Below, piece by piece: positions 21,150-48,343 of a stretch of DNA of 64,000 bases. How positions within the stretch are numbered: the first letter of the stretch is position 1; every line of letters starts with the position of its first letter. The notes under the pieces were generated by a model. The model did no database searches, was not told where the DNA came from, and saw nothing but the letters and a program-made list of their open reading frames with translations. Made by a program: the position numbers and the translations under genes. The stretch is from Bacillota bacterium (GTDB lineage Bacteria > Bacillota > Clostridia > Christensenellales > SZUA-584). The stretch is taken from NCBI GenBank assembly GCA_023397655.1, contig JAEWTW010000026.1, positions 182,463-246,462 on the forward strand, read 5' to 3'.

Positions 21150-21272
21150 CGCTTCCTCCTTAATAAAATTAGGAAGCTAATGCAGCATGAACATTATTAA
21201 ATTGTCAATGTTCTTATAGGTTACCTTAAGTTTATCAGCTTCCGTTTTATATTCAAGGCTGTTAAATGTCTT
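19495..21272 (-). mobile_element. conserved LSR unit copy 1 (gene plus ~120 bp upstream region)
   Basis: Alignable by eye with 45908..47713 and 63026..63518. Homology starts inside the last ~10 codons (ttggtgg) and ends after ...caaggctgttaaatgtctt. Confidence 0.7.
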
Positions 21273-23430: not shown

Positions 23431-23455
23431 TGTCGTCTCCTCCTTAAACATTCAC

Positions 23456-25933: not shown

Positions 25934-27046
25934 TCATACGGGCAGGTCAAAGTGCACCTCCGCTTTATCTTCGTGTGGGGCACAACGATCTTCTCTATAG
26001 TCGTAATGCTCGTGATATGTACGTCGAGGGATTTTCAAAATCGCTTCACGCACCGCATCGTCCTTGGTTTCGCGATACATTTCCAGCAAGGCTTTCCGCG
26101 CAAAAGGCGCAACACGTCGGCTTTTTTCCATTATACGCAACAACGCTTCCACCGATGCTTGGGTTCGGATGTCTTTGAGCCGATCACATACTTCCCGATA
26201 TTGATCAAAATCTTTGCGATCTATCAGCTTCTCCAGTGCCGGAACAACGCGCGGATCGTCAAGCTCCATCAGATAATACGCATTATCGTTGCGTAGACAT
26301 TTGCTTATTAAAGCTGCAAGCGGCTGGGAATAGCGTGAAGAATCACGCTTCATGAGTTCAACTGCCACAAGGCAGCGCACATGCTTCAAGTTATCGGTGC
26401 ATAGCGCAAAGGACAGTAGCGAAGCATTGGATAATCGCGTCATTGCCAATTCAGCAATTCTTGCACGGCACCCCTCGTCTGAATCTTCCAAAAGATTTTT
26501 TTCGAGCAGGGCTAGATCGTCAATCTTATCGAAAATGTCCTTATTCCAATAGGGGTCTCGACGAAAACAGAAATACAATGTGTTTGGATCGGTAGTGATT
26601 TTTGCAAGGTGTTGGGCGGTGTTCCTGCGGACCTGGTGATCTTTTTCAGACATGATCAGTTCTTTTAGCAGTTCCACGTTCATAATTTTTTTCGAGGCAT
26701 TCATTCGAGCGAAGAAACTTGTTGCTTCTGCCGCTATCTTGAACAGCATATTATCGTCGTAGATTTCCTCCATTGCTTTTCTTGTGGCTTGATTCTCCTT
26801 AATACGATAAATTTTTGAATAATCGCATTTTATAATTGCCTCGGTTCGTACATAAACCGAGCTATCCGTTGCAGCGATTTTCGCGATTACTTCTTGATCC
26901 GTCAGCTTTTTTACAGCGAAGGCGCGCGTTCTTTCAAGTGGTGCTTTGAGCGCTGCTTCAGCAATCTTTCTCTGGTCGTTCAGATTTTCGATGGCATTTT
27001 CAGCTCGAGCTCTGTCCGTGCTCATCCATGGTGTAAATAGTCCCAT
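25934..27046 (-). CDS. HEAT-like alpha-solenoid paralogue, 370 aa
   Basis: Start at MGLFTPWMSTDRARAENAI (AGGAGG upstream). Tail TYHEHYDYREDRCAPHEDKAEVHFDLPV. Confidence 0.7.
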   Translation of the reverse strand: MGLFTPWMSTDRARAENAIENLNDQRKIAEAALKAPLERTRAFAVKKLTDQEVIAKIAATDSSVYVRTEAIIKCDYSKIYRIKENQATRKAMEEIYDDNMLFKIAAEATSFFARMNASKKIMNVELLKELIMSEKDHQVRRNTAQHLAKITTDPNTLYFCFRRDPYWNKDIFDKIDDLALLEKNLLEDSDEGCRARIAELAMTRLSNASLLSFALCTDNLKHVRCLVAVELMKRDSSRYSQPLAALISKCLRNDNAYYLMELDDPRVVPALEKLIDRKDFDQYREVCDRLKDIRTQASVEALLRIMEKSRRVAPFARKALLEMYRETKDDAVREAILKIPRRTYHEHYDYREDRCAPHEDKAEVHFDLPV

Positions 27047-29868: not shown

Positions 29869-30864
29869 CTACTTAAACAAATTCCATGATAAATCCGTCA
29901 GGTCATACAGCACTTCATGCGTCATTTTACTTTTATCGCACAATTTTCCCGTCAGCAACAATGTTCCATCACGCTTTAACCCAGCGGTTATATCAGCGTT
30001 GGCTTTTATGGCCACAATGTCAAGCCAGTGCTGTGTTGCTGTTTCTCCATTTTCACTAAATCCTGCGGAAACAACGGTACCGTCTCCCTTAAGCCCTATT
30101 GACGTATGGTTACCAGCCGCGACAGCAACGATATCACGCCATTGCTCCACCGCGAGGCAGCCGCCAGCATCGTTCCCAAACGCTTTCACCGTTCCATCAG
30201 CTTTTAACAAAAGCGTATGGTTAAAGCCTGCAGCGGCCCCAATGACGCTTTCAATTCCGGGAATATCACATTGCCCACAGTTGTTATCGCCGGCGGCAAG
30301 CACTTTACCGTCGGCGGTGATTCCAATGGTATGATTATCTCCTGTAGCGACGTCGACCACGTTGTTCCATCCGCTTACATCGCATTGCCCATAGGCGTTG
30401 TAACCCGCTGCACTAACGCTGCCATCCTCATGAACGGCAACAAAATGATTCATCCCAGCGGAGCCTGTCAACACGTTGCACATCCCTGCAACGTCGCATC
30501 GCCCGTGCGCATTCTCTCCGGCTGTAAGCACAGTCCCTTTATTGGTGATCGCTGCCGAAAAGTAGCCACCACCGCAAAGAACCGCAACATTTTTCCAGTC
30601 TTTGCTGTTGTTTCTGCCATCCTTACCGAAACCTGCGGAGAGAACACTGCCGTTGTTCCTGAGGCCCATCACATAACCGCCGCCAACGGCGATTCGAGCC
30701 ATCATTTTTCTTGTTTCACTTAGACTGAATCGAGCTGCTTGCACCGCTTCTTCATAAACCAGGCCGCACGCCCGTTTTGGCTGTTGTATCTGCGGTTTTT
30801 GTCCCGATGCCAGTGAGTTGTTGGTCTCCTTTTCCGTCTTTTTCAAAATATCAGAAAATCCCAT
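29869..30864 (-). CDS. RCC1-like repeat (beta-propeller) protein
   Basis: At least six repeats of ...G..HT.G...DG.V.A.G.N..GQCDV..W.... No signal peptide. Confidence 0.75.
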   Translation of the reverse strand: MGFSDILKKTEKETNNSLASGQKPQIQQPKRACGLVYEEAVQAARFSLSETRKMMARIAVGGGYVMGLRNNGSVLSAGFGKDGRNNSKDWKNVAVLCGGGYFSAAITNKGTVLTAGENAHGRCDVAGMCNVLTGSAGMNHFVAVHEDGSVSAAGYNAYGQCDVSGWNNVVDVATGDNHTIGITADGKVLAAGDNNCGQCDIPGIESVIGAAAGFNHTLLLKADGTVKAFGNDAGGCLAVEQWRDIVAVAAGNHTSIGLKGDGTVVSAGFSENGETATQHWLDIVAIKANADITAGLKRDGTLLLTGKLCDKSKMTHEVLYDLTDLSWNLFK

Positions 30865-30987: not shown

Positions 30988-32244
30988 TCATAGTGGCTCA
31001 ATAAGCCCGTCCTTGACCACATAATCACTATGGCCGGCACAATTGCTGCTGATGGGTCCGTCGTTGTGGACATCGCGGAATCGCTTTTTCTGGCGGGCAG
31101 CGTGCTGTGCGAACGGCTCCGGCAGCTCCGCCTCGGAATAGAGCCAGCGCAACTGTACGGTGGCAAAATGATCACCTCCCGACACCCTTTTTTCCAACGC
31201 CTCGATTAGCGCAAATGAACAGCGCTTTTGGAAAAGCCCGCGCAGCTCCCCACTGTCACCGGATTGCTGCACATACCGAATAGCATCCTCCTCGCCACCA
31301 CACCAGGCAAGCCGTTGCTTAAAAATATCGCTGTGCTGCGGATATTCCGCCTCGCGTCTCCGCCACCAGCAAGCCGACGCGTATTCAACTGGTATCCATG
31401 TGGCGATATGTTCACGTTTTAGACTATCTTTTGGCAAATTTTCAAACAGCGTCATAAGCTCATCGGCCTTCATTTTTTTCATAGCGGCAGTTTCGGCATC
31501 TATCACTGTCGTTTTGACAAAGACGTCTTGTGCGTCGCCAGGATCAATACGTTTGGCGGCTCTGACACTTATATAGCTATCCATAAGGGCAATCTGTTTC
31601 AAAAGTGCTGGGTTTTTGATACATTCATCCTCAATGCTCTTGATACACAGCTTTTGCATGCTCTTTTCGTCAGCGAATGAGAGGATCAACTTGCATAGCG
31701 CGTCCTCATCCGTTATCTGTTCACCGCAAAGAGCACGCAGCTCGCCGTTTTCCGAAGCATCCATCGCAATTTGCGCAAACAGCCTTTGGTCAGCCTCGCC
31801 CCAGTCGGATTGTTTAAGCTCCCCCAGGCGCTCCATCGCGGCACAACGCACATCTGCAGAAAGCGCGCTATCCGCCACAACATGGGTAAGCAGTCGGACG
31901 TCGCTCAGGTGTCTCACAGCCGCGCGTTTCCCGGAGTCGCTGGGGTGCTGTCGCACAAGCGCATACAGCAAGCTTGGGTCGGTCAGCCGTTTCAATACTA
32001 TCCAGCCGAAGGCTTCCAATGGCAGTTCTTGCGTCAGTGCCATAAAGAACTGTGCAAGAAATTGCTGGTCATTAATACGTTCAATGCAAAGCTGACGCAA
32101 ATGAACCTGATCGTCGGGGAGCAGGCCGGAATGGCCTATATCCGAAAGCAGTATTTTAATCAGCTTTTTCTCGTCGCGTATTCTGCCGATAGCCTTTTTT
32201 TGCTTAGCCCAGTTTGTCGTCATATAAGGCTTAAAAATACCCAC
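30988..32244 (-). CDS. HEAT-like alpha-solenoid paralogue, 418 aa (GTG start)
   Basis: AAGGAGGA, 4 nt spacer, then GTG gives MGIFKPYMTTNWAKQKKAI. Lies 16 nt downstream of the radical-SAM stop. Tail FRDVHNDGPISSNCAGHSDYVVKDG. Confidence 0.7.
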   Translation of the reverse strand: MGIFKPYMTTNWAKQKKAIGRIRDEKKLIKILLSDIGHSGLLPDDQVHLRQLCIERINDQQFLAQFFMALTQELPLEAFGWIVLKRLTDPSLLYALVRQHPSDSGKRAAVRHLSDVRLLTHVVADSALSADVRCAAMERLGELKQSDWGEADQRLFAQIAMDASENGELRALCGEQITDEDALCKLILSFADEKSMQKLCIKSIEDECIKNPALLKQIALMDSYISVRAAKRIDPGDAQDVFVKTTVIDAETAAMKKMKADELMTLFENLPKDSLKREHIATWIPVEYASACWWRRREAEYPQHSDIFKQRLAWCGGEEDAIRYVQQSGDSGELRGLFQKRCSFALIEALEKRVSGGDHFATVQLRWLYSEAELPEPFAQHAARQKKRFRDVHNDGPISSNCAGHSDYVVKDGLIEPL

Positions 32245-32260
32245 AATATCCTCCTTTTCG

Positions 32261-34456
32261 TTACGTGAGCATGCCTGCCAAATGTATAAACGCGGCTTTC
32301 CGAGCCGTGCAGTCAAAGTCTCCGCTGTCAATGTTCTTATCTTTTGACCATGCCTTACACATCCCGCCGCAAAGGTATCGAACTTCGCATTCTTTGCATT
32401 TTTCATTCATGTCCACATCGTGCCGGGTTAGTTCACGGAAAGTCACTCCCTCTACAACATCATCCAACCTATCTTTGAGCAAGTTGCCCAGCTTCTTATC
32501 CGCACCGCACCACGCATAGCACGGATAAGCGCCGCCGTCCGGCTCCACGTAAAGGTTCTGCCCAAAGCCGCAGGAGAAGCGCGGCCTGAAAGGCCGTTTC
32601 TTCTCATTCTCGTCTATGCAGAGAAAATCCGAGTCCTTCGGTGCGCTTTCCGCCCTACCTAACGGTAGAATTGGTCTGAATCGCACATTTTCGATCCCAA
32701 GACGTTCGCACAATTCATCAACCGATTTCCCTTCTTGTCCTTCGCGCTGCGTTTTAGTCAGCGTCGCGCAGACGCCTACCCTGCGGATGAAGCCCAATTC
32801 CTTAATTCGTTCAAGGTTATCTATCGTCCGTGCGTAACGCCCTGCGCCGCGCTGCGCATCGTGGCTCGCTTCGTCGCCGTCTACGCTGACCACAATTTCA
32901 GGAAAGGCCTCGCACACAGCTTTCAGGCGCTCATCGGAAATCGGAAAGCCAAGCGACGTGCGCAGTATCAGCCGCATACCTTTCAGCGAAATACGCCTGA
33001 TTCCCGCGAGCATTGCGTCGATTTCGGTATGCACAAGCGGCTCTCCGCCCGTCACCACCACCGCGCGAAAAAACGACTTCTGCGCCGCTTTGATAATATT
33101 AAGCATCGCGTTTGCAGGCATTTCGTTCATTTCACTCTCGCCACCCCGCGCATAGCAATGCCCACAGCGCAGCGGGCAATCGAACGTGACATGCAGATAC
33201 AGCTTGTTGAGTTCATTGACTCGGTTTTTCTTGTAACGCTCAAGAGCAGTACTCGCGCCATACGGATAACGGCCCCACTTGGACGCTTGTCTCATACGCT
33301 GTTCGTTGATCTCCAGATCGTAGGGGTGCGGCTGGTCCCCTGCCATCTGCAGCAGCGGAGCATTCTCAGGAGGTATGCGTTTCGTCATAATGTAACCCAT
33401 CTCAAGCGCCATATCGCGCGATATCTCGTCAAACAACGCGCGGTATGCCTTGCAATAAGGGTCTTTCGTGGTGTCTGAAGCAAACATGTTGTAAAGGCAT
33501 CCGCCGCTGCAATACGGGAAATGAACGCACGTCCCGCACTCAGTATGCGCGCCTTCCTGCTTTTCCAGTAATTTGCGGTACGCTGCGCTTTCAATAATCT
33601 GCGCTTCGGTCAGGTCGTCCATCACGTTTCCCAGCGCAAATTCCTCATGCCCGCAGAAGCGCTGGCATGAATAAACGCTGCCGTCCGGAGCAATCGCGGC
33701 GAAACGCCCGAGGCACGGAAAAAAAGTGCACGTATGCCCTTCGCCATCAAAGCAGCCTTTCGCCATGGAATCCAGCGTAAATACCCTTGTCTGCCGCATA
33801 TTTTTCTTGTATGCAGCCAGGGTATCCAGCATAATTCTGGCCATGTCGTGAGCGGTCACAGTATACGCGTCAGGCTCGCAGCCCAGTGCGCGTACCGCAC
33901 CGTGCAAAGCATATGGAATTCCGCTGCGCAGACTGCCCGCATAATGCCGGAATACGCGCTCAGCCTCGCCCGCGGATTCATGGGTAAACGTGCAAATACG
34001 GCTGGTCTCCACGCCATATTGCAGCAGCACCGACCGACCGCTCTCATTGGCAGCATAGTACCCTTTCCCGCGCTGCGCATCGCACATCGCTTCATCGCCA
34101 TCGATGCTGGTTCCTACGGCAATGCGGTAATCCCGGATGAGCTGCGCCATATGTTCGTCCATCGCGATGAGGTTACTCTGTATGGAAAGGCGTAACCTGC
34201 GTCCAAAGCGTTGCTGCAGTTTTGGCAGTATGGTTTCGAAAAATCCCGCACCAGCCAGCAAAGGTTCGCCGCCGTGAAATGTAACGCGTACGCTTCCCTC
34301 TTCCGGCGCGATCCGTTCCATAAAATCAAGCACTTTATCTGCCACCTCGCGCGTCATGGTTTCACCCCGGTTGGGGCCGAAGCAATAGGTACACGAGGCC
34401 TGGCAGGCCGCTGTGGGCACGAGCATGAAATTGCCGGGGCGAAAAGACGGTTCCAT
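32261..34456 (-). CDS. fused double radical-SAM/SPASM-domain enzyme
   Basis: Two CX3CX2C sites (CQASCTYC and CPLRCGHC). Each is followed by Cys-rich SPASM-like segments (CTFFPC...CQRFC...CGTCVHFPYCSGGC and CGFG...CYAWC...CKECEVRYLCGGMC). Start is ATG 34456 or GTG 34459, behind GGAGG. Confidence 0.85.
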   Translation of the reverse strand: MEPSFRPGNFMLVPTAACQASCTYCFGPNRGETMTREVADKVLDFMERIAPEEGSVRVTFHGGEPLLAGAGFFETILPKLQQRFGRRLRLSIQSNLIAMDEHMAQLIRDYRIAVGTSIDGDEAMCDAQRGKGYYAANESGRSVLLQYGVETSRICTFTHESAGEAERVFRHYAGSLRSGIPYALHGAVRALGCEPDAYTVTAHDMARIMLDTLAAYKKNMRQTRVFTLDSMAKGCFDGEGHTCTFFPCLGRFAAIAPDGSVYSCQRFCGHEEFALGNVMDDLTEAQIIESAAYRKLLEKQEGAHTECGTCVHFPYCSGGCLYNMFASDTTKDPYCKAYRALFDEISRDMALEMGYIMTKRIPPENAPLLQMAGDQPHPYDLEINEQRMRQASKWGRYPYGASTALERYKKNRVNELNKLYLHVTFDCPLRCGHCYARGGESEMNEMPANAMLNIIKAAQKSFFRAVVVTGGEPLVHTEIDAMLAGIRRISLKGMRLILRTSLGFPISDERLKAVCEAFPEIVVSVDGDEASHDAQRGAGRYARTIDNLERIKELGFIRRVGVCATLTKTQREGQEGKSVDELCERLGIENVRFRPILPLGRAESAPKDSDFLCIDENEKKRPFRPRFSCGFGQNLYVEPDGGAYPCYAWCGADKKLGNLLKDRLDDVVEGVTFRELTRHDVDMNEKCKECEVRYLCGGMCKAWSKDKNIDSGDFDCTARKAAFIHLAGMLT

Positions 34457-34472
34457 CACGATATTTCCTCCA

Positions 34473-35522
34473 TCAATCAGGTTGAAACAGTATCGGTTGT
34501 TCAATAGCATCTGTATGCCCCATATCTATGTGATCTCCGAGGTCATAAAACTCATGATGCACATCGCTGTGACGCTCGGGAAGAATCATGCGTCCGCGGA
34601 ACAAATGAATTTGTTCCACAAATCTCCCGTTCTTATAGATGAACTTGAGCAAAGCGCTTGCAATCATTGAGTGTTTTTCAAAGCATACATGGACGAGCGC
34701 CTGAAGCAAGGCGTCGTCTGTATTATCTATCCAGTCGGTGCGGCCTTCTTCGCTCAGCTGTATCAGTCGTTCACCCGCCTTTTCTGCATAACCATCTCCG
34801 CCGCTCAGAAAAATATTTAAAATTCCCATTGGTTTTAGTCGTGCCAATGCGGCGTCCGAACGATGCTTTTTCGCGGCTTTAAGGAAAACCTGCTGATTGT
34901 CGGGCATCCTCTCCAGCGCCCATTCACGAGTGTCCGGATATGTAGAATTCGAGGCTATATAGGCGATATCCGCCTTTTCAACTATTTTTGAGAACGCCGC
35001 TTTGCGCACATCTGAGTCCTGATCATTCAGGCATATTTGCAGCAATACGTCTCGGCATACATTTCCAGATTTCACTGCTTTACGCTTTTCATAAGCTGAA
35101 TGTGCATACTGCGCAATAAGCGTATCAGCTTCTGGATCATTGCCCAGTCGTCTGTGCGCAACCGCTCGCACTCCCCAGTTGGGATCGGTTTTGGTAAGTT
35201 CTTGGAGAACCGCCGCGTTTTCAATGCGTTCGGCAGCTCTCTGGCGAAAGCTGTCAGTTTCGCAATGCCGCCCGATCTGACTCAAGAGTCCCTGGTCGGT
35301 GATTCGATCAAGCAAGTCGGCAGCGTAGACGTTTGGTTTCATAACAATTTGATATAGCAGCGTCTGATCGGTAAGCCGTTCTGCCGCGACTTTTCTTACT
35401 TTATAGTGGAAGCTTCCATCCGAGATAATCTCAAACAACGTTTGTTGATCCCTGATACGTTCGACGGCTTTTGCCGCTTTAACATGATCCCGATGTTTCC
35501 ATCCGGGTGTGAACAGGCCCAT
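34473..35522 (-). CDS. HEAT-like alpha-solenoid paralogue, 349 aa, HxD-richest tail
   Basis: Start at MGLFTPGWKHRD (GGGAGGA upstream). Its stop lies 1 nt before the radical-SAM gene's GGAGG RBS (start 14-17 nt further downstream). Tail ERHSDVHHEFYDLGDHIDMGHTDAIEQPILFQPD. Confidence 0.7.
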   Translation of the reverse strand: MGLFTPGWKHRDHVKAAKAVERIRDQQTLFEIISDGSFHYKVRKVAAERLTDQTLLYQIVMKPNVYAADLLDRITDQGLLSQIGRHCETDSFRQRAAERIENAAVLQELTKTDPNWGVRAVAHRRLGNDPEADTLIAQYAHSAYEKRKAVKSGNVCRDVLLQICLNDQDSDVRKAAFSKIVEKADIAYIASNSTYPDTREWALERMPDNQQVFLKAAKKHRSDAALARLKPMGILNIFLSGGDGYAEKAGERLIQLSEEGRTDWIDNTDDALLQALVHVCFEKHSMIASALLKFIYKNGRFVEQIHLFRGRMILPERHSDVHHEFYDLGDHIDMGHTDAIEQPILFQPD

Positions 35523-35535
35523 CGTTGAATCCTCC

Positions 35536-38187
35536 CTACTCGTCCAAATTGAAATATGTATACCCCTCATCATTGTGGCACCACTCGTCGCGGTATGCTT
35601 TGCCCTGAACATCCGTGTGGGATATGACTTTCTTTTCGAGTCCTTTTATAGCATTCGTAAACCGTCCCATTGAATAAACCTGTTTGAGCGCCACTGCCAT
35701 TGGCCGGTAATCAAACCGCTCATCCTTTTCGTTTTCAGCAATGACAGATATCATCTCCCTAACCGTTGTTTCGCTCAGTTGCCGCGCCCAACCCACGTCC
35801 AATTCATTTAAACGTGCACAAATCTCCGGTGTAAAGGTAAACGGTATGTTTGATATTACGATTTGGAAAAGCGCATTTGCATCTGTGATATGCTGCAGCG
35901 CACGCTTGCGAGTTTGCAGTTCCTTTGCATTGCGGGCAATAGTCAGAAGTTTATCTTTGTCGGATATCCTCAATAAATCCATATCAACCCTCTCGATTTT
36001 CAGCGCGATGTCGCAAAGCATATTCTCATTCGTGATACGGTGTATGGCTTCGATCCGCATATCCAGCGGCATACTCACGTCGAGCGCAATGGCTTTGAGT
36101 TTTTTTGCATCTTTTATATCCTCAAACTCTGCCATTTGTTTTTTGAGGTTTACATCTCCATATGAAACGTTGTTATCACCCTTTTCTCTCAGTGTTGTTT
36201 CTGGCATCGGCAGTAAATCCATGTAGACATAATCGCCGTCCTGATGGCACCATTTGTCGCGGTATTCCTTGCCGGTAAGGTCAAGGTGCGCCACGGCTTT
36301 TCCATGCAGCTTTGCAATCGCCACTTTTGATCGTCCCTGCATATAGACGTTTTTCAATACGGCGGCAAAGTGCCGGTAATCAAATTTCTCATCCTTTTCG
36401 TTGCCCGCAATGACGTCTATCAGCGCCTTGACTGCCGCGTCGTCAAGCTGTTGCACCCAGTCCGCATCCAGCTCATTAAGGCGCTCGCAAATCTCAGGCA
36501 TAAAACTTTTTGGCACGTTGGCGATTACTGCTTTATATAGCGCCTTCGCGTCATGAACGCGCTGCAGCGCCTGTTTGCGTATCCGCCGATCCTTTGCGTC
36601 TCTGGCAATTCGCAACAGCATATCCGGATCTTTGATCGTGTGCAGGTTGAAATCCTGCTTCTCCGGCATCTCGATTTTAAGCGCAACGTCAAGCAGCGTA
36701 TATTCGTCCGTGATGCGGCGTGCTGCCGCCGCGCGTATTCTCGGCGCGACATCGCTATCTAGCGCAATTTCTTTTAAAGCTGTCTGGCTTGTGACCAACT
36801 GCAGATCTTGCAGTGCATCGTCTGCATCCCTGTTATTTCGCAGCCTGAATATCGTCGGATCGATCTCCGGCTTTATATCGTCAAGTTCCAGATAGGTAAA
36901 GCCTCCGTCTTCGTGGCAGCCCTTATCACGGTTCACCTTGCCGCTGGAATCGCTGTGAGATACGGCAGTCCCTTTAAGCGCCGCGATACTCTGCGTCGCA
37001 CGTCCTTTCCCGTATATGCGCCTCAGTGCGGTCGCAATATGTGTATAATCGAACCGCTCTTCCGCCGTATTCTCCGACAATATTTGCGCCAAGCCCTCCA
37101 CGGTGCGGTTACTGGCTTTTTGCACCCATTCTTTATCGATTTCGTCGAGTCGCTCGAAAAATTTTCGGTCTCTGTAGTGCTTCGGGTTGTTGTCGAACAG
37201 TGTAAGCATCGTATCCAGCCTACCGATACGCAGCAGTGCCTTCTCGCTGATTTCGCTATCCTTTGCGCCATTGTGAATACGCAAAAGCGCCTCATCCCCT
37301 GACACATACTTCAACGCCTCCTGGCACAAAAAGCCCATCTGGTATTCGGACGGAAACAGTTCTGGGCCATCGTGCATGGCAATGCGCTCAAATATCGTGA
37401 AATCCCGGATACGACTTTTTGCCTGCACACGCACCTCCTCTGGCCCGCACAGCGCCATCAACGCCAGCCGTCGGTCGTCTCCGATGTCTTCGGGGCTTAC
37501 CAGCTTCGCGCATTCACACAGCACGTATTGATTCAACGTTTGATCCATGATTACCTGCGCAAGTGCCGGGTCGCCCGCTTTCTTCACTGCTCCGGTGCAA
37601 ATGTGTGATTTCTGCGCCGTGTGTGCCAGCTTAACCGCGCGGTCGGTATTTTTCATATTGACAATTGCGGCTAAGCGAATCTCTTCATTCTCCGCCATGT
37701 CGAACATGTCCTGCAGGTATTGCTGATCGCCAATCCTCTTCAGCGCAATAATTCGCACATCCCGATCGGGGTCTTTCGCCGCCAGCCATTTGAGCACCTC
37801 CTGGTCCGCCAAATGTGCTGCCGCCTTTCGGCGCAGCCCGTAGCCCCCTGCGTACCGAGCCACGGCAGCCAGACAGCTTTGCAGTTTCGCGTCGTTTTCG
37901 ACTGACTCCTTATCCAACTTTTCAAGGCCGTCCCACACGCGACACAGCGGCTCCACCGCCATCAGCCGCCGAAGCGCGGCTTCACGAGGGGCGCTTAATT
38001 TAGGCACATTGATAACATCGAGGATCAACCCGCAGTCCCAAAGCCTTTTTACCGCTTCCTCTTGGATATAGTGATTGGGTGCATTCAACGCCGCGTCGCG
38101 AAGTATTGCTTCCTTTTGAACTTTGTTCAGCGCCACCAATGCATTTTTAAAGTTCTCCGACATCCATCCCGGTTTGAAAAGACCCAT
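35536..38187 (-). CDS. HEAT-like alpha-solenoid paralogue, 883 aa, with a triplicated C-terminal module
   Basis: MGLFKPGWMSENF behind AGGAGGA. Three modules each end in H-x-D ... CH-x-D ... Y.Y..L. Confidence 0.75.
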   Translation of the reverse strand: MGLFKPGWMSENFKNALVALNKVQKEAILRDAALNAPNHYIQEEAVKRLWDCGLILDVINVPKLSAPREAALRRLMAVEPLCRVWDGLEKLDKESVENDAKLQSCLAAVARYAGGYGLRRKAAAHLADQEVLKWLAAKDPDRDVRIIALKRIGDQQYLQDMFDMAENEEIRLAAIVNMKNTDRAVKLAHTAQKSHICTGAVKKAGDPALAQVIMDQTLNQYVLCECAKLVSPEDIGDDRRLALMALCGPEEVRVQAKSRIRDFTIFERIAMHDGPELFPSEYQMGFLCQEALKYVSGDEALLRIHNGAKDSEISEKALLRIGRLDTMLTLFDNNPKHYRDRKFFERLDEIDKEWVQKASNRTVEGLAQILSENTAEERFDYTHIATALRRIYGKGRATQSIAALKGTAVSHSDSSGKVNRDKGCHEDGGFTYLELDDIKPEIDPTIFRLRNNRDADDALQDLQLVTSQTALKEIALDSDVAPRIRAAAARRITDEYTLLDVALKIEMPEKQDFNLHTIKDPDMLLRIARDAKDRRIRKQALQRVHDAKALYKAVIANVPKSFMPEICERLNELDADWVQQLDDAAVKALIDVIAGNEKDEKFDYRHFAAVLKNVYMQGRSKVAIAKLHGKAVAHLDLTGKEYRDKWCHQDGDYVYMDLLPMPETTLREKGDNNVSYGDVNLKKQMAEFEDIKDAKKLKAIALDVSMPLDMRIEAIHRITNENMLCDIALKIERVDMDLLRISDKDKLLTIARNAKELQTRKRALQHITDANALFQIVISNIPFTFTPEICARLNELDVGWARQLSETTVREMISVIAENEKDERFDYRPMAVALKQVYSMGRFTNAIKGLEKKVISHTDVQGKAYRDEWCHNDEGYTYFNLDE
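35539..36867 (-). repeat. two full ~220-aa tandem protein modules (aa 441-660 and 661-883); a half module precedes them (aa ~330-440)
   Basis: Aligned by eye: LKEIALDSDVAPRIRAAAARRITDEYTLLDVALKIE vs LKAIALDVSMPLDMRIEAIHRITNENMLCDIALKIE, and PEICERLNELDADWVQQL vs PEICARLNELDVGWARQL. Confidence 0.8.
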
Positions 38188-38241: not shown

Positions 38242-39288
38242 CTACCACCCCGCTGTTTGTTCATTTTTGTCCTCAGCCCAGCGTAAAGTAGGTATAACCT
38301 TCATCGTTATGGCTCGATTCACATGGCCACTGTGAGTAATCGGTTTGTTCACTAAGCCTTTAATCTCCGTTTTAGATTGTTCTCTTTTATATATCCGTTG
38401 TGAAAACCCGTATTCTGCCGCCTTTACGCTAATGTTTTCCCACTCGTGTTTTACGGGAAAACGTCGGCTATGTTTGCACGTTGCGATGCGCTCGAACACA
38501 GTAAAATCCTGAATCCTGCCCGCTGCATCTGCACGTATCTCCTCAGGCCCGCACAGTACCAGCAAAGCCAGCCGCCAGTCATCCGTGATATCGGCCGCGC
38601 TCACCATTCTTGCGCACTCTTCGCATACGGCCAGGTGCAGCGTCTGCCCCATAATCTCTGCAGCGAGCGCCTTATCACCTGTTTTGCGGAGCGCTTTGAC
38701 GCATATATAGGGTTCTTCGGTATTACGCGCCATCCATGCCGCGGACGCGGTATTTTGCATATAGACAGCAATGCACAAGCGCAAGTCCTCGGAATCCGCC
38801 GCATCGAACACAGCCTGTAGGTAATCCTGGTCTTCTATCCGAATCAGCGCATTAACGCGCACGGCTTCGTCTTTATCATTCTCGTATATCCATTTCAGCA
38901 GCGCCTGATCCGTCACATAACCTGCTGCTTAGCGGCGCAGTATCTCGGTTCCATACCGCGATACACAGGCGAGGCAGTCTTGAAGCAGAGTATTATGTAT
39001 GGCTGCTCTCCCGTTGGTCATGCAGATATCACACCATGCTCTCGCAAACGGCTCAATCCCCAGCAGCCGGACAACCGCCCGCTCACCAATGCCTTCCGGC
39101 ACCATGTCAGCAGCCAGCCTCATCAGCATAGTAGAATCATTCATCCGATCAACGGCCATGCACCGGATACGCATATCAACCGCTTTGCGCGCCGCGCGGC
39201 AGAGCACGACCTGACGTTTTACCCGCTGAAGCGCTAACTCCGCTTTCCTGTAGTTGGTGGACATCCACGCCGGTTTAAATAGGCCCAT
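38242..39288 (-). pseudogene. disrupted paralogue of the 883-aa gene
   Basis: MGLFKPAWMSTNY N-terminus. In-frame TAA at 38929-38931 where the paralogue has Lys (RRK vs RR*). A frameshift near the 3' end: the shifted frame reads HNDEGYTYFTLG* and ends at 38273. A large internal deletion relative to 35536..38187. Confidence 0.75.
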
Positions 39289-39299
39289 ACAACGTTTCC

Positions 39300-39944
39300 T
39301 TACTCCATCTCCAGATTAAATTCGTCGAAGCAGTGTGCCGCCACGTCGCCGCGCTGTGCAAGCACCTGCTGACAAACGATCACCGCTTTTGTGAACTCGC
39401 TCATGCGTTTATCAGAGGTGTCTATTGTAGCCAGCTCCTCGAAAAAACTCATTCGCCGCAGCAGATCTGCTTTCAGCAGCAGGTAGCGGTTCCAATCACG
39501 CTTCCGGCAACGTCTCATCTTTCGTTGGGTTAATTCCAGACACTTCGCACGCATTTCCCGCGCACGGACATCATCCTCCGCATCATCGCAGACCCATACC
39601 GCACAAAGGTATGCGCGAATCGCGCCTCGTATATCTTTTTGATGCTCACAGTGCAGCGCGCGCTTCTGGAATTGATATCCCAATTGGGGAAGCCCTATAT
39701 CTGCGGTCGCATATAACCGCTCCAGCACTTTGCATGCCGGGCGCGGCCATTTGCTTATATTTTCCGCCACGTAACCACAGTGTGGGCATATCATGATCCA
39801 GTGCTTCATCGTGGAACGTAAAAGCTGTGCGGGACGAAAATCAAGATCAGGCCCAGAAAACGTACTGAAAGACACCAACCACGTTTGCTCACTCGGCTGT
39901 CCACACGCAACACAATAAGCGATTTTTTCTTTTATCGTGCTCAT
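39300..39944 (-). CDS. DUF2225-like zinc-ribbon plus helical-repeat protein
   Basis: CVACG ... DLDFRP ... CPHCGYVA arrangement recalled from DUF2225, followed by a helical C-terminal half. Confidence 0.5.
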   Translation of the reverse strand: MSTIKEKIAYCVACGQPSEQTWLVSFSTFSGPDLDFRPAQLLRSTMKHWIMICPHCGYVAENISKWPRPACKVLERLYATADIGLPQLGYQFQKRALHCEHQKDIRGAIRAYLCAVWVCDDAEDDVRAREMRAKCLELTQRKMRRCRKRDWNRYLLLKADLLRRMSFFEELATIDTSDKRMSEFTKAVIVCQQVLAQRGDVAAHCFDEFNLEME

Positions 39945-41337: not shown

Positions 41338-41766
41338 TTATTCCCCCAGAGCTTGAAGATCTAAATGCGCCAGCGCTTCCTGTGTCTCAGAGAACCCCAT
41401 ACCGTGCGTGATGCAGTACAGCAGCGCAACATCGCGTTTTACCCGTGGATACAGTTCGTTCTTTTTCGCGATTCTCAGCATTTTTTGCGTTTTTTCCACA
41501 TCCACACCCAACCCAATGGCCAGTTGTATTACCTTATCGCGTGATGGCCTGCGTGTGCCATTAAAAATTTGATGCCCATAGGTTCGCTCAATGCCGGAAC
41601 GCTTAATGACATGCTGTGGTGTCTCACCCATGCTCATGCATAGCTCTCTGATGTAATCTGAAAATGACGGCAAATCCGGCAAGTCCGTATGAGTGATGTA
41701 CTGATCAATGTTATCTGTTTTAAATAGGCTTTCTAGTAAATCGCCGGTGGACATTTTCTTCTCCAT
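41338..41766 (-). CDS. XRE-type helix-turn-helix protein, paralogue A
   Basis: Shares IERTYGHQIFNGTRRPSRDKVIQLAIGLG with the 44311..44757 product (IEKAFCNQLFNGTRKPSRDKVIQLAFGFG). Confidence 0.65.
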   Translation of the reverse strand: MEKKMSTGDLLESLFKTDNIDQYITHTDLPDLPSFSDYIRELCMSMGETPQHVIKRSGIERTYGHQIFNGTRRPSRDKVIQLAIGLGVDVEKTQKMLRIAKKNELYPRVKRDVALLYCITHGMGFSETQEALAHLDLQALGE

Positions 41767-41842: not shown

Positions 41843-42397
41843 TCAAGCCCTCGCTGTCATCTTTTCCATAAGTCTTTCAAATATGTTGGGTTGTATACAA
41901 TAACGGGGGTCACCTGCTCTCAATGCTGTCAGCACGTCATAAGCTTTCTGCCAATAAAGGCCGCAGATTTCTTCCTTTTGAAATCGCTCCAGATCAATAT
42001 CATTTACTTTTAAAACATACACTCGGTCAATTTCGTTGTTGATAAATCTCGATCCATGGAATTCGGCTTCCCAGCTTACATGCTGATCAAACAGAAATTC
42101 AAGTCCCTTTCCCGGCTTTATACCAAGCTCTTCCTCAAGCTCTCTATTCGCGGTTGTCTCATATGTCTCCCCTTTGGCAACATGTCCTGCACAGGAGGTA
42201 TCGAAGCAATTCGGGAAAGCGTCCTTGTCAGGGCTGCGCTGCTGCAACAGGACAAAAAAGCTGTTGCCTTCCGCGTCATCCCGTACTACCCATACATGGG
42301 AGCTGGCATGCAAATCTCCGTCCCTATGAACTGCATTGCGGTCTTTATATATTCCGGTACCGCTGCCGTCCTCATTAAAAATCTCCAACTGTTCCAT
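41843..42397 (-). CDS. NUDIX hydrolase
   Basis: Nudix box GHVAKGETYETTANRELEEELGI. Confidence 0.85.
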   Translation of the reverse strand: MEQLEIFNEDGSGTGIYKDRNAVHRDGDLHASSHVWVVRDDAEGNSFFVLLQQRSPDKDAFPNCFDTSCAGHVAKGETYETTANRELEEELGIKPGKGLEFLFDQHVSWEAEFHGSRFINNEIDRVYVLKVNDIDLERFQKEEICGLYWQKAYDVLTALRAGDPRYCIQPNIFERLMEKMTARA

Positions 42398-42559: not shown

Positions 42560-44311
42560 TCACTGATATGTAATTTCTATATTGGTTCCCGTCAGCGCTT
42601 GCGCCGCGCCCCGCATATCCTCGGTGAGCGTAATGTTTTCAAGATTAGGGAGCCGTATAAGGGGTAAAAGGTCAATATCCGGCATATTCCATACTCCCAC
42701 ATTGTTGAGGCTCGCCAGGTTTTCGATCCCCGACAGCGATTTAATTTCTACGCCGTCCAACTCCAAACTCTCCAAATCCTCAATTCCGGCCAGTTCGTGA
42801 AGCGATGCGAGCGAAGACGCCGCGATCTTTAATTGATGTATCGTTTTTCCGTTTAGATACGGCAGGTATTTTTCAGTATCCATATTGATCATATGCAGAT
42901 ACTCAATATCCCCGAGCGAAGCAAGCGGGGAAAAATCATCCGTCAAACAACTGACTAAAATCAGTTCCCTGATGCTTGGGCAATCTGCCAGCGGAGACAG
43001 ATCCATAACGGCGTCACAATCCGTCAATAGAAAATGTTTCAGCCCCGGAAGTTGCCGGATGATTTCGATGTCGGTGACAGGACAAGAGTAAAGTTCCAGC
43101 GATTGAAGGCCGGAAAGCTGCACAAGCGCGGATATGTCTGTAAAATCCTGATACCCCAAGCTTAGTTGCTGAAGATTCTTTAGTTTGGCGATATCGCCCA
43201 GATCAGATATAGCTCCCTCTCCTGCTTCGATCTCACCACTGTTAACCTGCCCGCGCAGTTCGTTCAGTTCCTCCTGCGTTTTTGCGGTATGGCCGGCGTA
43301 GATATACAGCTCCTTAACGTTATTTAGTTCCTCCACTTGAATAGGCTCATCTTCCGACTTGCCAAGCTGAAGACGCACCGCCTGCTCAACAAGCGGCTCG
43401 GAAAAATATGCATCGGAGTTGTTATAGAAAACAGGAGGCCTGATATCGGTAAATCTTCCGATCGCAAACCCTGCATTTAGCAATACAAACGATGCAAGCG
43501 CCATGCCAAGCACCAGCAGCGTCTTTTTCTTTTTGTGCCCGTCGGCGCTTTGAAGTGCTCTTCTAACTTGTTCCGCATCACGGTATCGGTCTTTCGGCGC
43601 AAAGGCCGTACATTTGCGCACGATATGTTCCAATCTGCGGTTCTTTAAGCGTAAAGCCTTCAATGATGTGCGCCCAGTTAGCAGCCAGGAAAGAACTACG
43701 CCCAATGAAAATATATCAGCGCGATTATCGGTTTGAGAAAACCCGTATTGCTCGGGCGGCGCAAATTCCTGCGTTCCGAAGAAAACGGTGTCTGCCCGTG
43801 CGGATTCGTCATACTCACGCGAAATGCCAAAGTCAATCAGCGTCACTTTTCCGCTTTCATCTATTATAATATTTTGCGGCTTTAAATCCCGGTGTATGAT
43901 TGGTGGCTTTTGCTTATGAAGATACGCGAGTATTTCACAAAGTTGTATGCCGATATTGATGACCTGCTTTTCCGAAAGCCGTTCTTTAAGCTGGCTTAAC
44001 GGGTCACCCTGCGCAAACTGACGTACGACACAGAGCATGTTTTTGTTTTGAAACTCCTCCACCAGCTCAGGCAAACCTCTATGATGGAGCTTTTTCAGTA
44101 ATTCATTTTCTGATGCTTGAGATAATAAGGAAGTGTCAGTATAGCACTTTGCTATATAGTCGGTATTGAAGCTGTCTCTGACGAGCAGAGTTTCTCCCAT
44201 CTGATTTTGCGCAAGGCATTCCATAGGCTCATATTTTTCAAGAAAATCCTTAGGATAATAGTTATCGTCATATTCCTTAAGGAAATCATTTAAGATTTCT
44301 TTATCCATCAT
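42560..44311 (-). CDS. membrane Ser/Thr protein kinase with an extracytoplasmic LRR domain
   Basis: YIAKC, HRDLKPQNIII, DFGISRE and APPE kinase motifs. One TM helix (LLVLGMALASFVLL). C-terminal LRRs (LKNLQQLSLGYQDFTDISALVQLSGLQSLEL...). Confidence 0.85.
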   Translation of the reverse strand: MMDKEILNDFLKEYDDNYYPKDFLEKYEPMECLAQNQMGETLLVRDSFNTDYIAKCYTDTSLLSQASENELLKKLHHRGLPELVEEFQNKNMLCVVRQFAQGDPLSQLKERLSEKQVINIGIQLCEILAYLHKQKPPIIHRDLKPQNIIIDESGKVTLIDFGISREYDESARADTVFFGTQEFAPPEQYGFSQTDNRADIFSLGVVLSWLLTGRTSLKALRLKNRRLEHIVRKCTAFAPKDRYRDAEQVRRALQSADGHKKKKTLLVLGMALASFVLLNAGFAIGRFTDIRPPVFYNNSDAYFSEPLVEQAVRLQLGKSEDEPIQVEELNNVKELYIYAGHTAKTQEELNELRGQVNSGEIEAGEGAISDLGDIAKLKNLQQLSLGYQDFTDISALVQLSGLQSLELYSCPVTDIEIIRQLPGLKHFLLTDCDAVMDLSPLADCPSIRELILVSCLTDDFSPLASLGDIEYLHMINMDTEKYLPYLNGKTIHQLKIAASSLASLHELAGIEDLESLELDGVEIKSLSGIENLASLNNVGVWNMPDIDLLPLIRLPNLENITLTEDMRGAAQALTGTNIEITYQ

Positions 44312-44757
44312 TATGTTTCCCCAAGTATCTGTAATCCAAGATCGTGCAGCAAGCTTTGGGTTTTATCAATATTGAAAAGATGATTGATGCAATAGATGAT
44401 GGCGGCATCTCTTTTAAGCCGGGGGTATAACGGGCTTTTTTGTGCAATCTGAAGCATCTTCTGAGTTCCTTCCAGATCAAGCCCAAAACCGAAGGCCAAC
44501 TGAATCACTTTATCTCTGGAGGGTTTTCGCGTTCCGTTAAAAAGCTGATTACAAAAAGCCTTTTCGATAGAAGCTCGGCTTGCTATATCGCTTTTCTTTT
44601 CTCCGCGTTCGTTGCGCATCTGTTCGATATAGTCATGAAAAACTGGTATCTTTAGGTCTACTTGGTTATTTTCAATAAAGTCTTTGATGTCAGCTGTTTT
44701 GAATAGTCGGCGAAAAAGTGTGCTTGTCCTCAACCCCGACCCCTTTTCTTCCTGCAT
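44311..44757 (-). CDS. XRE-type helix-turn-helix protein, paralogue B, coupled to the kinase
   Basis: TAATG stop/start overlap with the kinase gene. HTH segment as in paralogue A. Confidence 0.65.
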   Translation of the reverse strand: MQEEKGSGLRTSTLFRRLFKTADIKDFIENNQVDLKIPVFHDYIEQMRNERGEKKSDIASRASIEKAFCNQLFNGTRKPSRDKVIQLAFGFGLDLEGTQKMLQIAQKSPLYPRLKRDAAIIYCINHLFNIDKTQSLLHDLGLQILGET

Positions 44758-45897: not shown

Positions 45898-47559
45898 TCA
45901 ACTTATCTTGGTGGTGACGAGGGGAGAATTGCCCCCGTCGCACAATATTGCATTCTGGCCCTGGCCAGAAGCATTTTCGCTTCCTTCTGAGAGCTTAATA
46001 GAACCTACGATGTCCTCGATCTCTTTGGTTATTGATATATCCTTGCAGAAGTTGAATACTACCTCTACCCAGTCTTTATAGACAATAACCTTATCGATAA
46101 ATGTCTCTACCAATACCTTAGTCATTTTCAGAGTACCGACTTCAAGCTGATTTCTTGCAATCCTGAACATCTTTGTGATCTCTTCTTCATTAAGCTGCTT
46201 GATATTGGCGTTCTTACAAAGCTCCTGATAGCTTTCATTTAGACGTTCTTTTTCTTGTTCAAGCTCGCTGAGCTTCTTTGCTAACGCGGTTGATGGCGAT
46301 GCCATAATCATTTCAACAATGTTGTCGATAGACTTCGTGACTTCTTTGATCTTCTTCTCGTAATTCGCCTTCGTATTTATATGCCCGGCATTCTTGCTCA
46401 GTTGATATTCACCGTAGGCCGCACAGATTTTTGGAATCAGCGTTTCATCAAAAAGATATTCTGCAAGCTTCTCCATAACAAAGGTTTCAAGGTATTCCCT
46501 GCGTATTTCTTTGTTCTCACAGCCGTTACGGCTCTTTCTGCCAGTACAAGCATAGGTCACATGCAACGTCTTTTTGCGTCCGGAGTTCTTCCGGTTTCCC
46601 GTATAGACTCTCCCGCATTCTCCGCAGATGACTTTTCTGGAAAGCAGGTAGACCTCTTTGGCGTTATTGCATGACCTGATTTTTCTGCGTGATTCCATTT
46701 TTTTAAGAGCAAGTTGGTAGTCTTCCTTGGAAATAATCTGTGGCACTCCGCCTTCAATACGAACCATCTCTTCTTCAGCTTTATACAGGTGGCTGTTTCT
46801 CCTGCCATCAATATCCTTTGAAGACATGCGATTGAAGATGTATACGCCGGTATATCGTTCATTTCTCAGAATACTTGAAATGGAGCCTTTACTGAAAGGT
46901 TTTCCGGCTTTGGTCATATACCCCTGAGCGTTTAGCGCATCTGCGATTACACCGTAACCGCTCCCTTCTATATACATCTGAAATATCATTCGAACGGCTT
47001 CAGCTTCTTTTTCATTGATGGTGTACTTTTTTGTATCGGGATCGACATTGTAACCAAGCGCTCCGGTACCGCCAGTATGCAGTCCTTTAAGTGCATTTTC
47101 AGTCATGCCTTTTTGTACTTCTCTGGCAAGGTTTTTAGAATAGTACTCAGCCATCGCCTCAAGTACGCTCTCCAGGATAATGCTCTCCGGGCCGTCGTCC
47201 AGATATTCCAAAACACTTAAGAGAGATATACCGCTTCTCTTAAGCTCTGTCCGGTAACCAATGCTATCACTTCTGTTTCGCGCAAACCGGTCGAGTTTAT
47301 GAACGATGACCACATCAAACAGATCTTTCTTTGCATCCTTGATCATTGTCAAAAACTCAGGACGGTTATCTGTCATTGCCGATTTTGCACGATCAATGTA
47401 TTCAGCAACAACGATAATATCATTTCGCTTTGCGTATTCGTTTATCGCACGAAGTTGAGCATCAATTGATTCATCTCTCTGGTTATCCGAAGAGAATCTT
47501 GCATAAACCGCCGCACGTACCGTTCCTCTGTTTTCTCTGATTTTTTCTAAAACTTTCAT
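45898..47559 (-). CDS. large serine recombinase (LSR), copy 2
   Basis: 553 aa, collinear with copy 1. There are 6 substitutions in the first 108 aa and a one-codon indel. The C-terminal tail differs after ...CDGG. Confidence 0.9.
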   Translation of the reverse strand: MKVLEKIRENRGTVRAAVYARFSSDNQRDESIDAQLRAINEYAKRNDIIVVAEYIDRAKSAMTDNRPEFLTMIKDAKKDLFDVVIVHKLDRFARNRSDSIGYRTELKRSGISLLSVLEYLDDGPESIILESVLEAMAEYYSKNLAREVQKGMTENALKGLHTGGTGALGYNVDPDTKKYTINEKEAEAVRMIFQMYIEGSGYGVIADALNAQGYMTKAGKPFSKGSISSILRNERYTGVYIFNRMSSKDIDGRRNSHLYKAEEEMVRIEGGVPQIISKEDYQLALKKMESRRKIRSCNNAKEVYLLSRKVICGECGRVYTGNRKNSGRKKTLHVTYACTGRKSRNGCENKEIRREYLETFVMEKLAEYLFDETLIPKICAAYGEYQLSKNAGHINTKANYEKKIKEVTKSIDNIVEMIMASPSTALAKKLSELEQEKERLNESYQELCKNANIKQLNEEEITKMFRIARNQLEVGTLKMTKVLVETFIDKVIVYKDWVEVVFNFCKDISITKEIEDIVGSIKLSEGSENASGQGQNAILCDGGNSPLVTTKIS

Positions 47560-47713
47560 CGCTTCCTCCTTAATAGAAATAGGAAGCTAATGCAGCATGA
47601 ACATTATTAAATTGTCAATGTTCTTATATGTTACCTTAAGTGTATCAGCTTCCGTTTTATAATCAAGGCTGTCAAATGTCTTGCTCGTTATATTGGCATT
47701 CGTAAATACAACC
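45908..47713 (-). mobile_element. conserved LSR unit copy 2
   Basis: Same boundaries logic as copy 1. The upstream homology with copy 3 runs ~40 bp further than with copy 1 (to ...aaatacaacc). Confidence 0.7.
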
Positions 47714-47893: not shown

Positions 47894-48343
47894 TTAACAA
47901 CAACATCCACTGTTACCGCTGCAGCAACAGCCGGAATTCTTTGATGTTTCCTGCTTTTCTTCTATTCCTAAAGCTTTGTACGCCGCCTGGCGAATGGCTT
48001 TAGCGGGGATATCATCGTAATCGTTACCTTCAAATTTAACCGCTCGACAATATGTTTCTTTTCCCAATAAAGCAGTACAAGACTCACAATAGTTATCATA
48101 AACTTCTATATCGAGTATGTCTTCAATGGGGACTCCATTAAACAGCACGGTATTCGATTGTGGGATTTGATTATCATCAAGTTTTGTCTCGGTCAGTTCG
48201 AAAACAATACCCTGAGGCTCAAGAGTCCTTTTTAATCTCTTTACCTCATTTGCAAGATTTTCACCCGTATCATAGCAGCGATCACAAGTATCACCTTCTA
48301 CGTCAAGGTGTCTCCATTCAATTTTAAGCGTTTTCAAAATCAT
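47894..48343 (-). CDS. DUF2703-like protein with a poly-Cys tail
   Basis: LKIEWRHLDVEGDTCDRC N-terminus (recalled from ars-linked DUF2703). C-terminus NSGCCCSGNSGCCC. 4-nt overlap with arsM. Confidence 0.6.
   Translation of the reverse strand: MILKTLKIEWRHLDVEGDTCDRCYDTGENLANEVKRLKRTLEPQGIVFELTETKLDDNQIPQSNTVLFNGVPIEDILDIEVYDNYCESCTALLGKETYCRAVKFEGNDYDDIPAKAIRQAAYKALGIEEKQETSKNSGCCCSGNSGCCC

Follow-up and report, generated by a model that had tools for sequence, protein, structure and literature searches.

Three tandem tail domains in a HEAT-like solenoid protein encoded beside a fused double radical-SAM/SPASM enzyme in a Bacillota bacterium

The 883-residue protein and its internal repeat

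The 64,000-nucleotide stretch of DNA analysed here (the window) is from a Bacillota bacterium of the Christensenellales (positions 182,463 to 246,462 of contig JAEWTW010000026.1, assembly GCA_023397655.1). Its minus strand carries an uninterrupted open reading frame (ORF) of 883 codons (35536..38187), in an array of paralogous genes near a gene for a fused double radical S-adenosylmethionine (rSAM)/SPASM enzyme (32261..34510), and the architecture of the 883-aa protein, its history and its possible relationship to the enzyme are considered below. The ORF encodes an N-terminal alpha-solenoid followed by three tail modules, an architecture that recurs in independent assemblies at 99% (P0001), 76% (P0002, from related loci L001/L003) and 57% identity (P0003, from L002/L004). 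The solenoid (residues 1-291; 37315..38187) begins with the motif MGLFKPGW and is predicted by AlphaFold2 to consist of HEAT-like helical repeats. Module copy 1 (residues 292-437; 36877..37314) comprises one HEAT-like repeat and tail domain 1 (residues 339-437; 36877..37173; motif residues H411, D413, C424, H425 and D427), and is followed by a moderately conserved linker (linker 1, residues 438-469; 36781..36876) that is 75% and 53% identical to those of orthologues and falls partly below 50 in the predicted local distance difference test (pLDDT). Module copy 2 (residues 470-660; 36208..36780), which is 52% identical to copy 3, comprises two HEAT-like repeats and tail domain 2 (residues 562-660; 36208..36504; motif residues H634, D636, C647, H648 and D650). 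Linker 2 (residues 661-695; 36103..36207) is of variable length and unconserved, with 8-25% identity to orthologues, just 12 codons alignable to its counterpart in L004, and pLDDT below 50 at residues 660-681. Module copy 3 (residues 696-883; 35539..36102) again has two HEAT-like repeats, followed by tail domain 3 (residues 785-883; 35539..35835; motif residues H857, D859, C870, H871 and D873). All of these features are on the minus strand.

An earlier note, made from the sequence of this stretch, had described residues 441-660 and 661-883 as aligning along their whole length, and residues ~330-440 as a third copy of the second half only. The internal repeat is highly significant when the protein is aligned to itself by BLASTP. 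The two longer segments are 51.6% identical over 188 aa (471-658 and 697-881, E values of 3e-64 and 6e-66), but each opens with a linker of ~30-36 residues that does not align. The third copy is likewise real, with 42% identity over 103 aa between residues 330-440 and the second half of each longer copy (E values of 4e-30 and 2e-28), but is not restricted to the second half: extended upstream it covers residues 292-435, with 38% identity to copy 2 over 145 aa (E value of 2e-34), and so includes one HEAT-like repeat. When the protein is scanned with a hidden Markov model (HMM) of the tail domain, there are exactly three matches, at residues 339-437, 562-660 and 785-883 (E values of ~1e-46 to 1e-49 each; 3.5e-46 for the first), and a search of the cluster-representative library with the tail profile returns three stretches as well (P0001).

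At the DNA level, the self-similarity of the gene amounts to a single stretch of 53 nucleotides with 74% identity. Recent duplication or gene conversion is ruled out by so small a remnant, and the repeat must therefore be old and no assembly artefact. An artefact of assembly or annotation, such as the mis-joining of tandem paralogous genes, might be imagined because tandem paralogues do exist in the surrounding island, but it is almost certainly not the explanation: the ORF is single and uninterrupted, its tail-domain copies are only 40-54% identical to one another with hardly any repeat at the DNA level, and at least four independent assemblies share the architecture.

The full-length AlphaFold2 model (pLDDT of 80.9, predicted template-modelling (pTM) score of 0.45) shows a regular array of helix-turn-helix units over residues 6-335, mostly with pLDDT above 90, three tail domains with matching patterns of secondary structure, and disordered linkers at residues 442-451 and 660-681. 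Searched with Foldseek, this model matches only generic HEAT/ARM solenoids (CAND1, karyopherins, PR65), with E values down to 1e-7 and low TM scores owing to the flexible domains. At the level of fold, the model is an alpha-solenoid of paired antiparallel helices, as expected of HEAT proteins; at the level of sequence, the 883-aa protein matches no Pfam family at an E value of 1e-2 or lower, and thus neither HEAT (PF02985) nor HEAT_2 (PF13646). Its paralogues score above the cut-offs of these families (HEAT, 24 bits against a cut-off of 23.5; HEAT_2, 35 bits against 27.7). Scans of Pfam, NCBIfam and PADLOC yielded no specific family for the 883-aa protein or its paralogues.

The tail domain, its distribution and its history

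The element H-x-D/CH-x-D had been taken in the earlier note for the end of a larger conserved unit on which a domain model should be built. That unit is a tail domain of ~99 aa, which in copies 2 and 3 follows HEAT-like repeats spanning ~90 aa. The twelve available modules were aligned first, and then ten tail sequences (alignment A1), in which R8, L9, W16, A47, L50, Y54, G57, I63, H73, D75, H87 and D89 are invariant and C86 is nearly so; the motif reads H-x-D, about ten residues, then C-H-x-D. AlphaFold2, given alignment A1, predicts with confidence a single domain of five helices followed by a beta-hairpin (pLDDT of 84.7, pTM of 0.76), with H73 and D75 within the strand at 70-75 and D89 at the start of the strand at 89-94. 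In the 883-aa protein, each tail domain has four to five helices, and the arms of the hairpin that carry H-x-D and C-H-x-D are separated by a conserved loop, GK-x-YRD-x-W. In the full-length model, the motif loop has pLDDT below 50 in all three copies (residues 414-428, 637-651 and 859-874), and is probably flexible, as expected of an exposed segment. A Foldseek search of the PDB and BFVD with the tail domain returned no structural relative.

The unit is well suited to a domain model, as had been anticipated: against 1.84 billion cluster representatives, the A1 profile retrieves only this clade, namely 14 proteins at an E value of 1e-3 or lower and nine at 1e-10 or lower. More than one tail stretch occurs among these 14 only in P0001 (three) and in the fragment P0007 (two). 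A word-indexed search with the whole 883-aa protein found only three true homologues. Copy number varies among relatives, from one in most to two in L005 and three in the lineage of the 883-aa protein. Members with a single C-terminal tail domain include P0008-P0013 and the paralogue upstream of the 883-aa gene (38242..39288, minus strand), which is intact in L001, L002 and L004 (471/474 aa, one module). The 671-aa protein of L005 has two tail domains; its N-terminal half belongs to the type of the upstream paralogue and its two modules to the copy-2 and copy-3 types, so that it is read as a recombinant between adjacent paralogues. Read thus, the two-copy protein shows that the process by which modules are assembled still operates in a related genome.

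The tail domains of each position (d1, d2 and d3) form a separate orthologous clade in a neighbour-joining tree, from which it follows that the three-copy state is older than the split between these genomes. The second and third domains form a sister pair (54% identity), which falls together with the module of the upstream paralogue (~50%), whereas the first is ~40% identical to either and groups with the one-module protein P0009. Tandem amplification, as proposed in the earlier note, thus holds insofar as there are three tandem copies, but the tree parts copies 2 and 3 from copy 1, and simple triplication of copy 1 in place is ruled out. Since copies 2 and 3 lie closer to the module of the neighbouring paralogue than to copy 1, the history of the array is, as judged from the tree, one of old duplication of a d2/d3-type module and its joining to a gene made up of the N-terminus and d1, by recombination or fusion of tandem paralogues.

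The ratio of nonsynonymous to synonymous substitutions (dN/dS, by the method of Nei and Gojobori) between orthologues is 0.06-0.28 over all three tail domains, 0.06-0.09 for the second and 0.12-0.16 for the third; the ratios are approximate, dS being saturated in several orthologue pairs. They show purifying selection on each of the three tail domains. It is very improbable, in our view, that a fusion of neighbouring paralogous genes left modules 1 and 2 as inert relics and that only the C-terminal copy works, the motif needing a free C-terminus. Such relics would accord with the position of the motif, within ~6-12 residues of the C-terminus in all other members seen, with the grouping of copies 2 and 3 with the module of the neighbouring gene, and with the decay that island paralogues do undergo (the upstream paralogue is a pseudogene in the window, and a homologue of the 349-aa paralogue described below is frameshifted in L001). 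However, all five motif residues are retained in every copy in all three diverged orthologues, the dN/dS of the internal tail domains is equal to or below that of the C-terminal one, and each positional copy has its own orthologous clade.

The fused enzyme, its tail-bearing neighbours and the island

The fused enzyme gene (32261..34510, minus strand) is an ORF of 749 codons with a likely start at 34456, in which Pfam detects two Radical_SAM and two SPASM domains. Both halves of the enzyme have the CxxxCxxC motif (C36 and C445) and full sets of SPASM cysteines, and are 23% identical to one another. The N-terminal half (residues 28-371) scores 332.3 bits with TIGR04083, a model of peptide-modifying rSAM enzymes, above the curated cut-off of 300. 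The models nearest to it after TIGR04083, both below cut-off, are those of the anaerobic sulfatase maturase (anSME, 194 bits against a cut-off of 349) and PapB (190/340), followed by HxsB (140/370), SCIFF (138/425), StsB (124/625), QhpD (118/453), YhhB (111/445), FxsB (94/370) and GrrM (90/310). No family is above cut-off for the C-terminal half, for which the best scores are those of StsB (94 bits) and PapB (78 bits). The nearest characterised relatives (anSME, PapB, the SCIFF maturase, StsB and QhpD) act on cysteine or aspartate residues in peptides or proteins. The enzyme family is larger than the tail clade, with 267 clusters at an E value of 1e-20 or lower and full-length matches down to 35% identity; the fused enzyme is found in several hundred clusters within the Bacillota, and more distant relatives are annotated in metagenome-assembled genomes of Anaerolineae and Hydrogenedentes.

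Every tail-domain locus also has the double rSAM gene, which is directly adjacent in the window, L001/L003, L004, L005, L009, L089/L090 and L091. A scan of metagenomes found neighbours with the tail and/or the N-terminal motif at 15-16 of 21 loci of the fused enzyme (32-74% identity), the remaining five having almost no flanking sequence; single-domain relatives of the enzyme have such a neighbour at only one of 59 loci. L017/L018 and L001/L003 are duplicates rather than independent loci. There are up to five tandem tail-bearing paralogues per enzyme gene. At the level of gene neighbourhood, these loci show strict coupling of tail-bearing genes to the two-headed rSAM/SPASM enzyme.

Neighbours of distant members of the enzyme family have tails such as SHHDFGSGSCHDDISAVTFDF, WHHDEGDRDCNTHNDRSYHFD, PHSDEFESCGHSDIGIGVDFPL and PHEDGHSTLCSGEHVDHASVEFPL, usually together with an N-terminal MGLFGPP or MGLFxPxW and canonical repeats of the PBS-lyase-type HEAT class. 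Because positions ~45-93 of the narrow tail profile align to the C-termini of many of these proteins, the part shared throughout the superfamily is the last ~50 residues, that is, the last helix and the hairpin. Body length varies freely, from 200 to 880 aa, and internal copies of the motif were seen only in the lineage of the 883-aa protein when it was compared with distant superfamily proteins. The tail clade is part of a wider, undescribed superfamily, whose genes form arrays directly adjoining a fused double rSAM/SPASM gene and whose proteins combine PBS-lyase-type HEAT repeats with an N-terminal MGLFxPxW and, at the C-terminus, a tail of the form H-x-D..C..H-x-D..aromatic. Sharply conserved, the MGLF-x-P-x-W motif (in the canonical branch, MGLFGPP) may be a recognition element or processing signal; it is common to proteins that are otherwise highly diverged, including the window genes that begin at 38187, 35522, 27046 and 25576 and many neighbours in L006-L091. 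Two canonical-branch HEAT proteins (L017 7115..9502 and L015 3849..5834) have a second internal repeat, ..LGW(R/K)PGKDENGAWYWIAKQ(Q/K)WDQC(I/S)(K/E)IG.PAV.PLI.., among their HEAT repeats, which was not seen in the window proteins.

The array in the window contains several other members of the superfamily, all on the minus strand. A 349-aa paralogue (34473..35522) has its true start, MGLFTPGW, at 35522, 13 nucleotides past the stop codon of the 883-aa gene, and ends in one tail domain that lacks cysteine (..RHSDVHHEFYDLGDHIDMGHTD..; HMM E value of 2e-25; Pfam HEAT, 24 bits). The upstream paralogue, detected by tblastn with 39% identity over residues 1-330, carries an in-frame TAA (38929-38931), has lost most of its module to an internal deletion, and is frameshifted in the tail, where a remnant ..SHNDEGYTYFTL end is thereby hidden. 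A recoded stop codon is ruled out in this gene by the combination of TAA, large deletion and frameshift. Directly downstream of the rSAM gene is a family member with the tail ..VHNDGPISSNCAGHSDYVVKDGLIEPL (30988..32406), 85% identical in L001. Further along are three superfamily members with HEAT-like repeats and a His/Asp/Cys tail: one of 370 aa that begins MGLFTPW (25934..27046), one of 706 aa that begins MGLLSPAW (23456..25576), and one of 412 aa with no MGLF-type start (22213..23451). Upstream of the array, a 214-aa zinc-ribbon-like protein (39300..39944) has the two Cys pairs CxxC ... CPHCGY and resembles a zinc ribbon joined to a helical domain, with no Pfam family above cut-off; in L001, L004 and L005, copies 65-68% identical to it lie beside either the array or the rSAM gene, and similar proteins of 213/214 aa with the same Cys pairs and the start MSTI(A/E)E.. 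are found in L006 and L091.

These genes are part of an island (~21.3-45.9 kb) flanked by two serine-recombinase genes (19495..21272 and 45908..47682) that are 87% identical at the DNA level. A third, partial copy near the end of the window (63039..63487) is 91-95% identical, and G+C content falls from ~0.48-0.53 to ~0.38-0.40 at ~44-45 kb. The recombinase copies and the drop in G+C content suggest stacked integrative elements. Also in the island are a Ser/Thr kinase with leucine-rich repeats (LRRs), a NUDIX protein, two helix-turn-helix (HTH) proteins, an RCC1-repeat protein and LRR lipoproteins. The kinase, with its LRRs at the C-terminus, the two HTH proteins, which are paralogous, and the NUDIX protein are encoded upstream of the array on the minus strand (42560..44311, 44311..44757, 41338..41766 and 41843..42397). 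A similar pair of kinase and HTH protein occurs in L001 and L010, a NUDIX protein and a kinase in L091, and a kinase with an adjacent TIR-TPR protein in L007. The kinase, HTH and NUDIX genes may be regulatory parts of the same system. Island genes decay differently among genomes: the 349-aa paralogue is intact in the window and frameshifted in L001, and the RCC1-repeat protein is intact in the window (331 aa; 29869..30864, minus strand) and split into ORFs of 214 and 126 aa in L001/L003 (L001 17162..18158). Outside the island (47894..49158, minus strand), a 149-aa protein ending in CCCSGNSGCCC is encoded beside a methyltransferase-like protein with a GGCCAGGCCCSG stretch.

Proposed function and comparison with known systems

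The 883-aa protein is a HEAT-like solenoid with three tail domains, and we hold, with somewhat better than even confidence, that the hairpin of each is a site of action of the double rSAM enzyme. A substrate role is favoured because there are many diverged paralogues per enzyme gene, conservation is confined to the tail, and a conserved loop appears exposed. The tail hairpin would be the target of post-translational modification by the fused enzyme; each module would be one modification site, and the 883-aa protein a three-site substrate, like a multi-core precursor. Each catalytic half of the enzyme may serve one of the two H-x-D/Cys positions, and the correspondence of two H-x-D positions to two catalytic halves is suggestive. 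The enzyme might form a Cys-to-Asp thioether or a His-x-Asp cyclophane, or oxidize cysteine, although a cross-link based on cysteine cannot be universal because some tails lack the residue. If the tails are substrates, modification would not require a free C-terminus, given that linker 2 is unconserved and that two of the three sites lie within the chain.

Several considerations weigh against this proposal. The link between enzyme and substrate is built on gene neighbourhood and motif conservation alone, and the tails of neighbouring genes were found by regular expressions and inspection by eye, with no calibrated model. The 349-aa paralogue and some other tails lack cysteine. The substrates would be 250-880 aa long, far above the typical size for rSAM/SPASM enzymes, and family scans of the operon detected no protease, exporter or recognition element of the peptides that are made on ribosomes and modified after translation (RiPPs). 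Furthermore, the hairpin is predicted to be within a folded domain, and the paired strands with their four invariant His/Asp residues would suit a metal site just as well.

The last point leads to a different proposal, which we regard as unlikely, though far from negligible: that the tail domain is a self-sufficient 2-His/2-Asp (+Cys) metal module and that the HEAT proteins serve the enzyme as partners, scaffolds or chaperones rather than as its substrates, with three copies providing three metal or interaction sites. Such a module would account for the invariant H, D, H and D on two paired strands of a confidently predicted fold and for the dispensability of cysteine in some members; moreover, HEAT-like solenoids typically bind proteins, and PBS-lyase-type HEAT proteins are chaperone-like lyases. 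Many diverged paralogues per enzyme gene, however, are the pattern of a substrate rather than of a stoichiometric partner, the tail is the sole part conserved throughout the superfamily whereas the length of the solenoid is free, and the motif loop is predicted to be flexible in the full-length model.

Returning to the tail hairpin as a substrate, a broader proposal can be made with more hesitation, as one that could well be right and that we hold to be slightly nearer to doubtful than to probable: MGLFxPxW HEAT proteins would constitute a new class, in which the terminal His/Asp/Cys hairpin is covalently cross-linked, or turned into a metal site or cofactor, by a dedicated two-headed rSAM/SPASM enzyme, each half of which would serve one H-x-D. 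As part of the same proposal, and with the same hesitation, the 883-aa protein would serve as natural proof that the site also functions when internal and can be multiplied.

Most of what is known of radical-SAM/SPASM enzymes concerns the making of small modified peptides; to our knowledge, only a few act on whole proteins, such as sulfatases and the gamma subunit of amine dehydrogenase. This region of the genome points to an undescribed pairing of a fused double rSAM/SPASM enzyme with arrays of HEAT proteins that have a short His/Asp/Cys tail in common and beside which it is consistently encoded. The triplicated module delimits the tail domain and offers biochemistry a ready minimal candidate substrate of ~100 aa, and selection on the motif when it is internal constrains mechanisms that need a free C-terminus. 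If the modification is real, it would give a function to enzymes related to TIGR04083 and a new type of protein cross-link or cofactor.

No description of these proteins was found among curated families, defence-system models or the literature searched on TIGR04083, HEAT with SPASM, triceptide and His motifs, and fused double rSAM enzymes, in which no paper mentions the TIGR04083 family; PADLOC gave only generic matches to kinase and rSAM domains and none for the 883-aa protein. TIGR04083 itself is a hypothetical equivalog that the N-terminal half of the enzyme matches at 332 bits and whose name NCBI gives to distant full-length relatives; here, however, that half is fused to a second, unrelated rSAM/SPASM half with 23% identity, and tail neighbours accompany single-domain relatives at only one of 59 loci.

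The nearest parallels are the maturation of whole proteins by rSAM/SPASM enzymes (QhpD/QhpC, anSME), the His-Xaa-Ser system and multi-core RiPP precursors, but enzyme scores or substrate features set the present system apart from each. QhpD is an rSAM/SPASM enzyme that installs Cys-to-Asp/Glu thioethers in the gamma subunit of quinohemoprotein amine dehydrogenase. The resemblance would be in a protein substrate instead of an exported peptide, with a conserved cysteine and aspartate as candidate partners, and the product here would stay intracellular; on the other hand, the score with the QhpD model is 118 bits against 453, the putative substrate is a HEAT protein of 250-880 aa, dehydrogenase subunits are lacking and some tails have no cysteine. 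The His-Xaa-Ser system (HxsA, HxsB/HxsC) also combines a repeated His-based motif of three residues with two rSAM units, but the enzyme does not belong to it by the HxsB model (140/370 bits), the motif here is H-x-D, the two enzymes are fused and the substrates would be large solenoids. The anaerobic sulfatase maturases exclude it too (194/349 bits), with no sulfatase here and no C/S-x-P/A-x-R motif in the tails.

Multi-core RiPP precursors, with their thioether (ranthipeptide/PapB, SCIFF, sactipeptide) and cyclophane (triceptide) maturases, resemble the present system in that several paralogues are encoded beside one rSAM/SPASM enzyme, in the window operon as in related loci, and in the short C-terminal motif, repeated in the 883-aa protein. 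They differ in that their maturase models score far below cut-off, and the motif here is inside a folded domain of 100 aa rather than in a leader/core peptide; among the island genes there is neither a conserved peptidase nor a conserved ABC exporter. Ranthipeptides of the PapB type are a poor match (190 bits for the N-terminal half and 78 for the C-terminal half, against 340), and C-H-x-D has two intervening residues instead of three. In comparison with triceptides, H-x-D occurs two to four times per tail, and the YhhB, FxsB and GrrM scores are those given above. As to the HEAT proteins, the bodies of superfamily members match repeat models of the PBS-lyase type (CpcE/CpcF, NblB) and share their HEAT/ARM-type solenoid, but all matches to the NCBIfam models are below cut-off, and neither the MGLFxPxW motif nor the tail domain is a feature of those families. 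In outline the system would be an rSAM/SPASM maturase with co-encoded substrates, set apart by the type of substrate, the fusion of the enzyme and the internal multiplication of the site.

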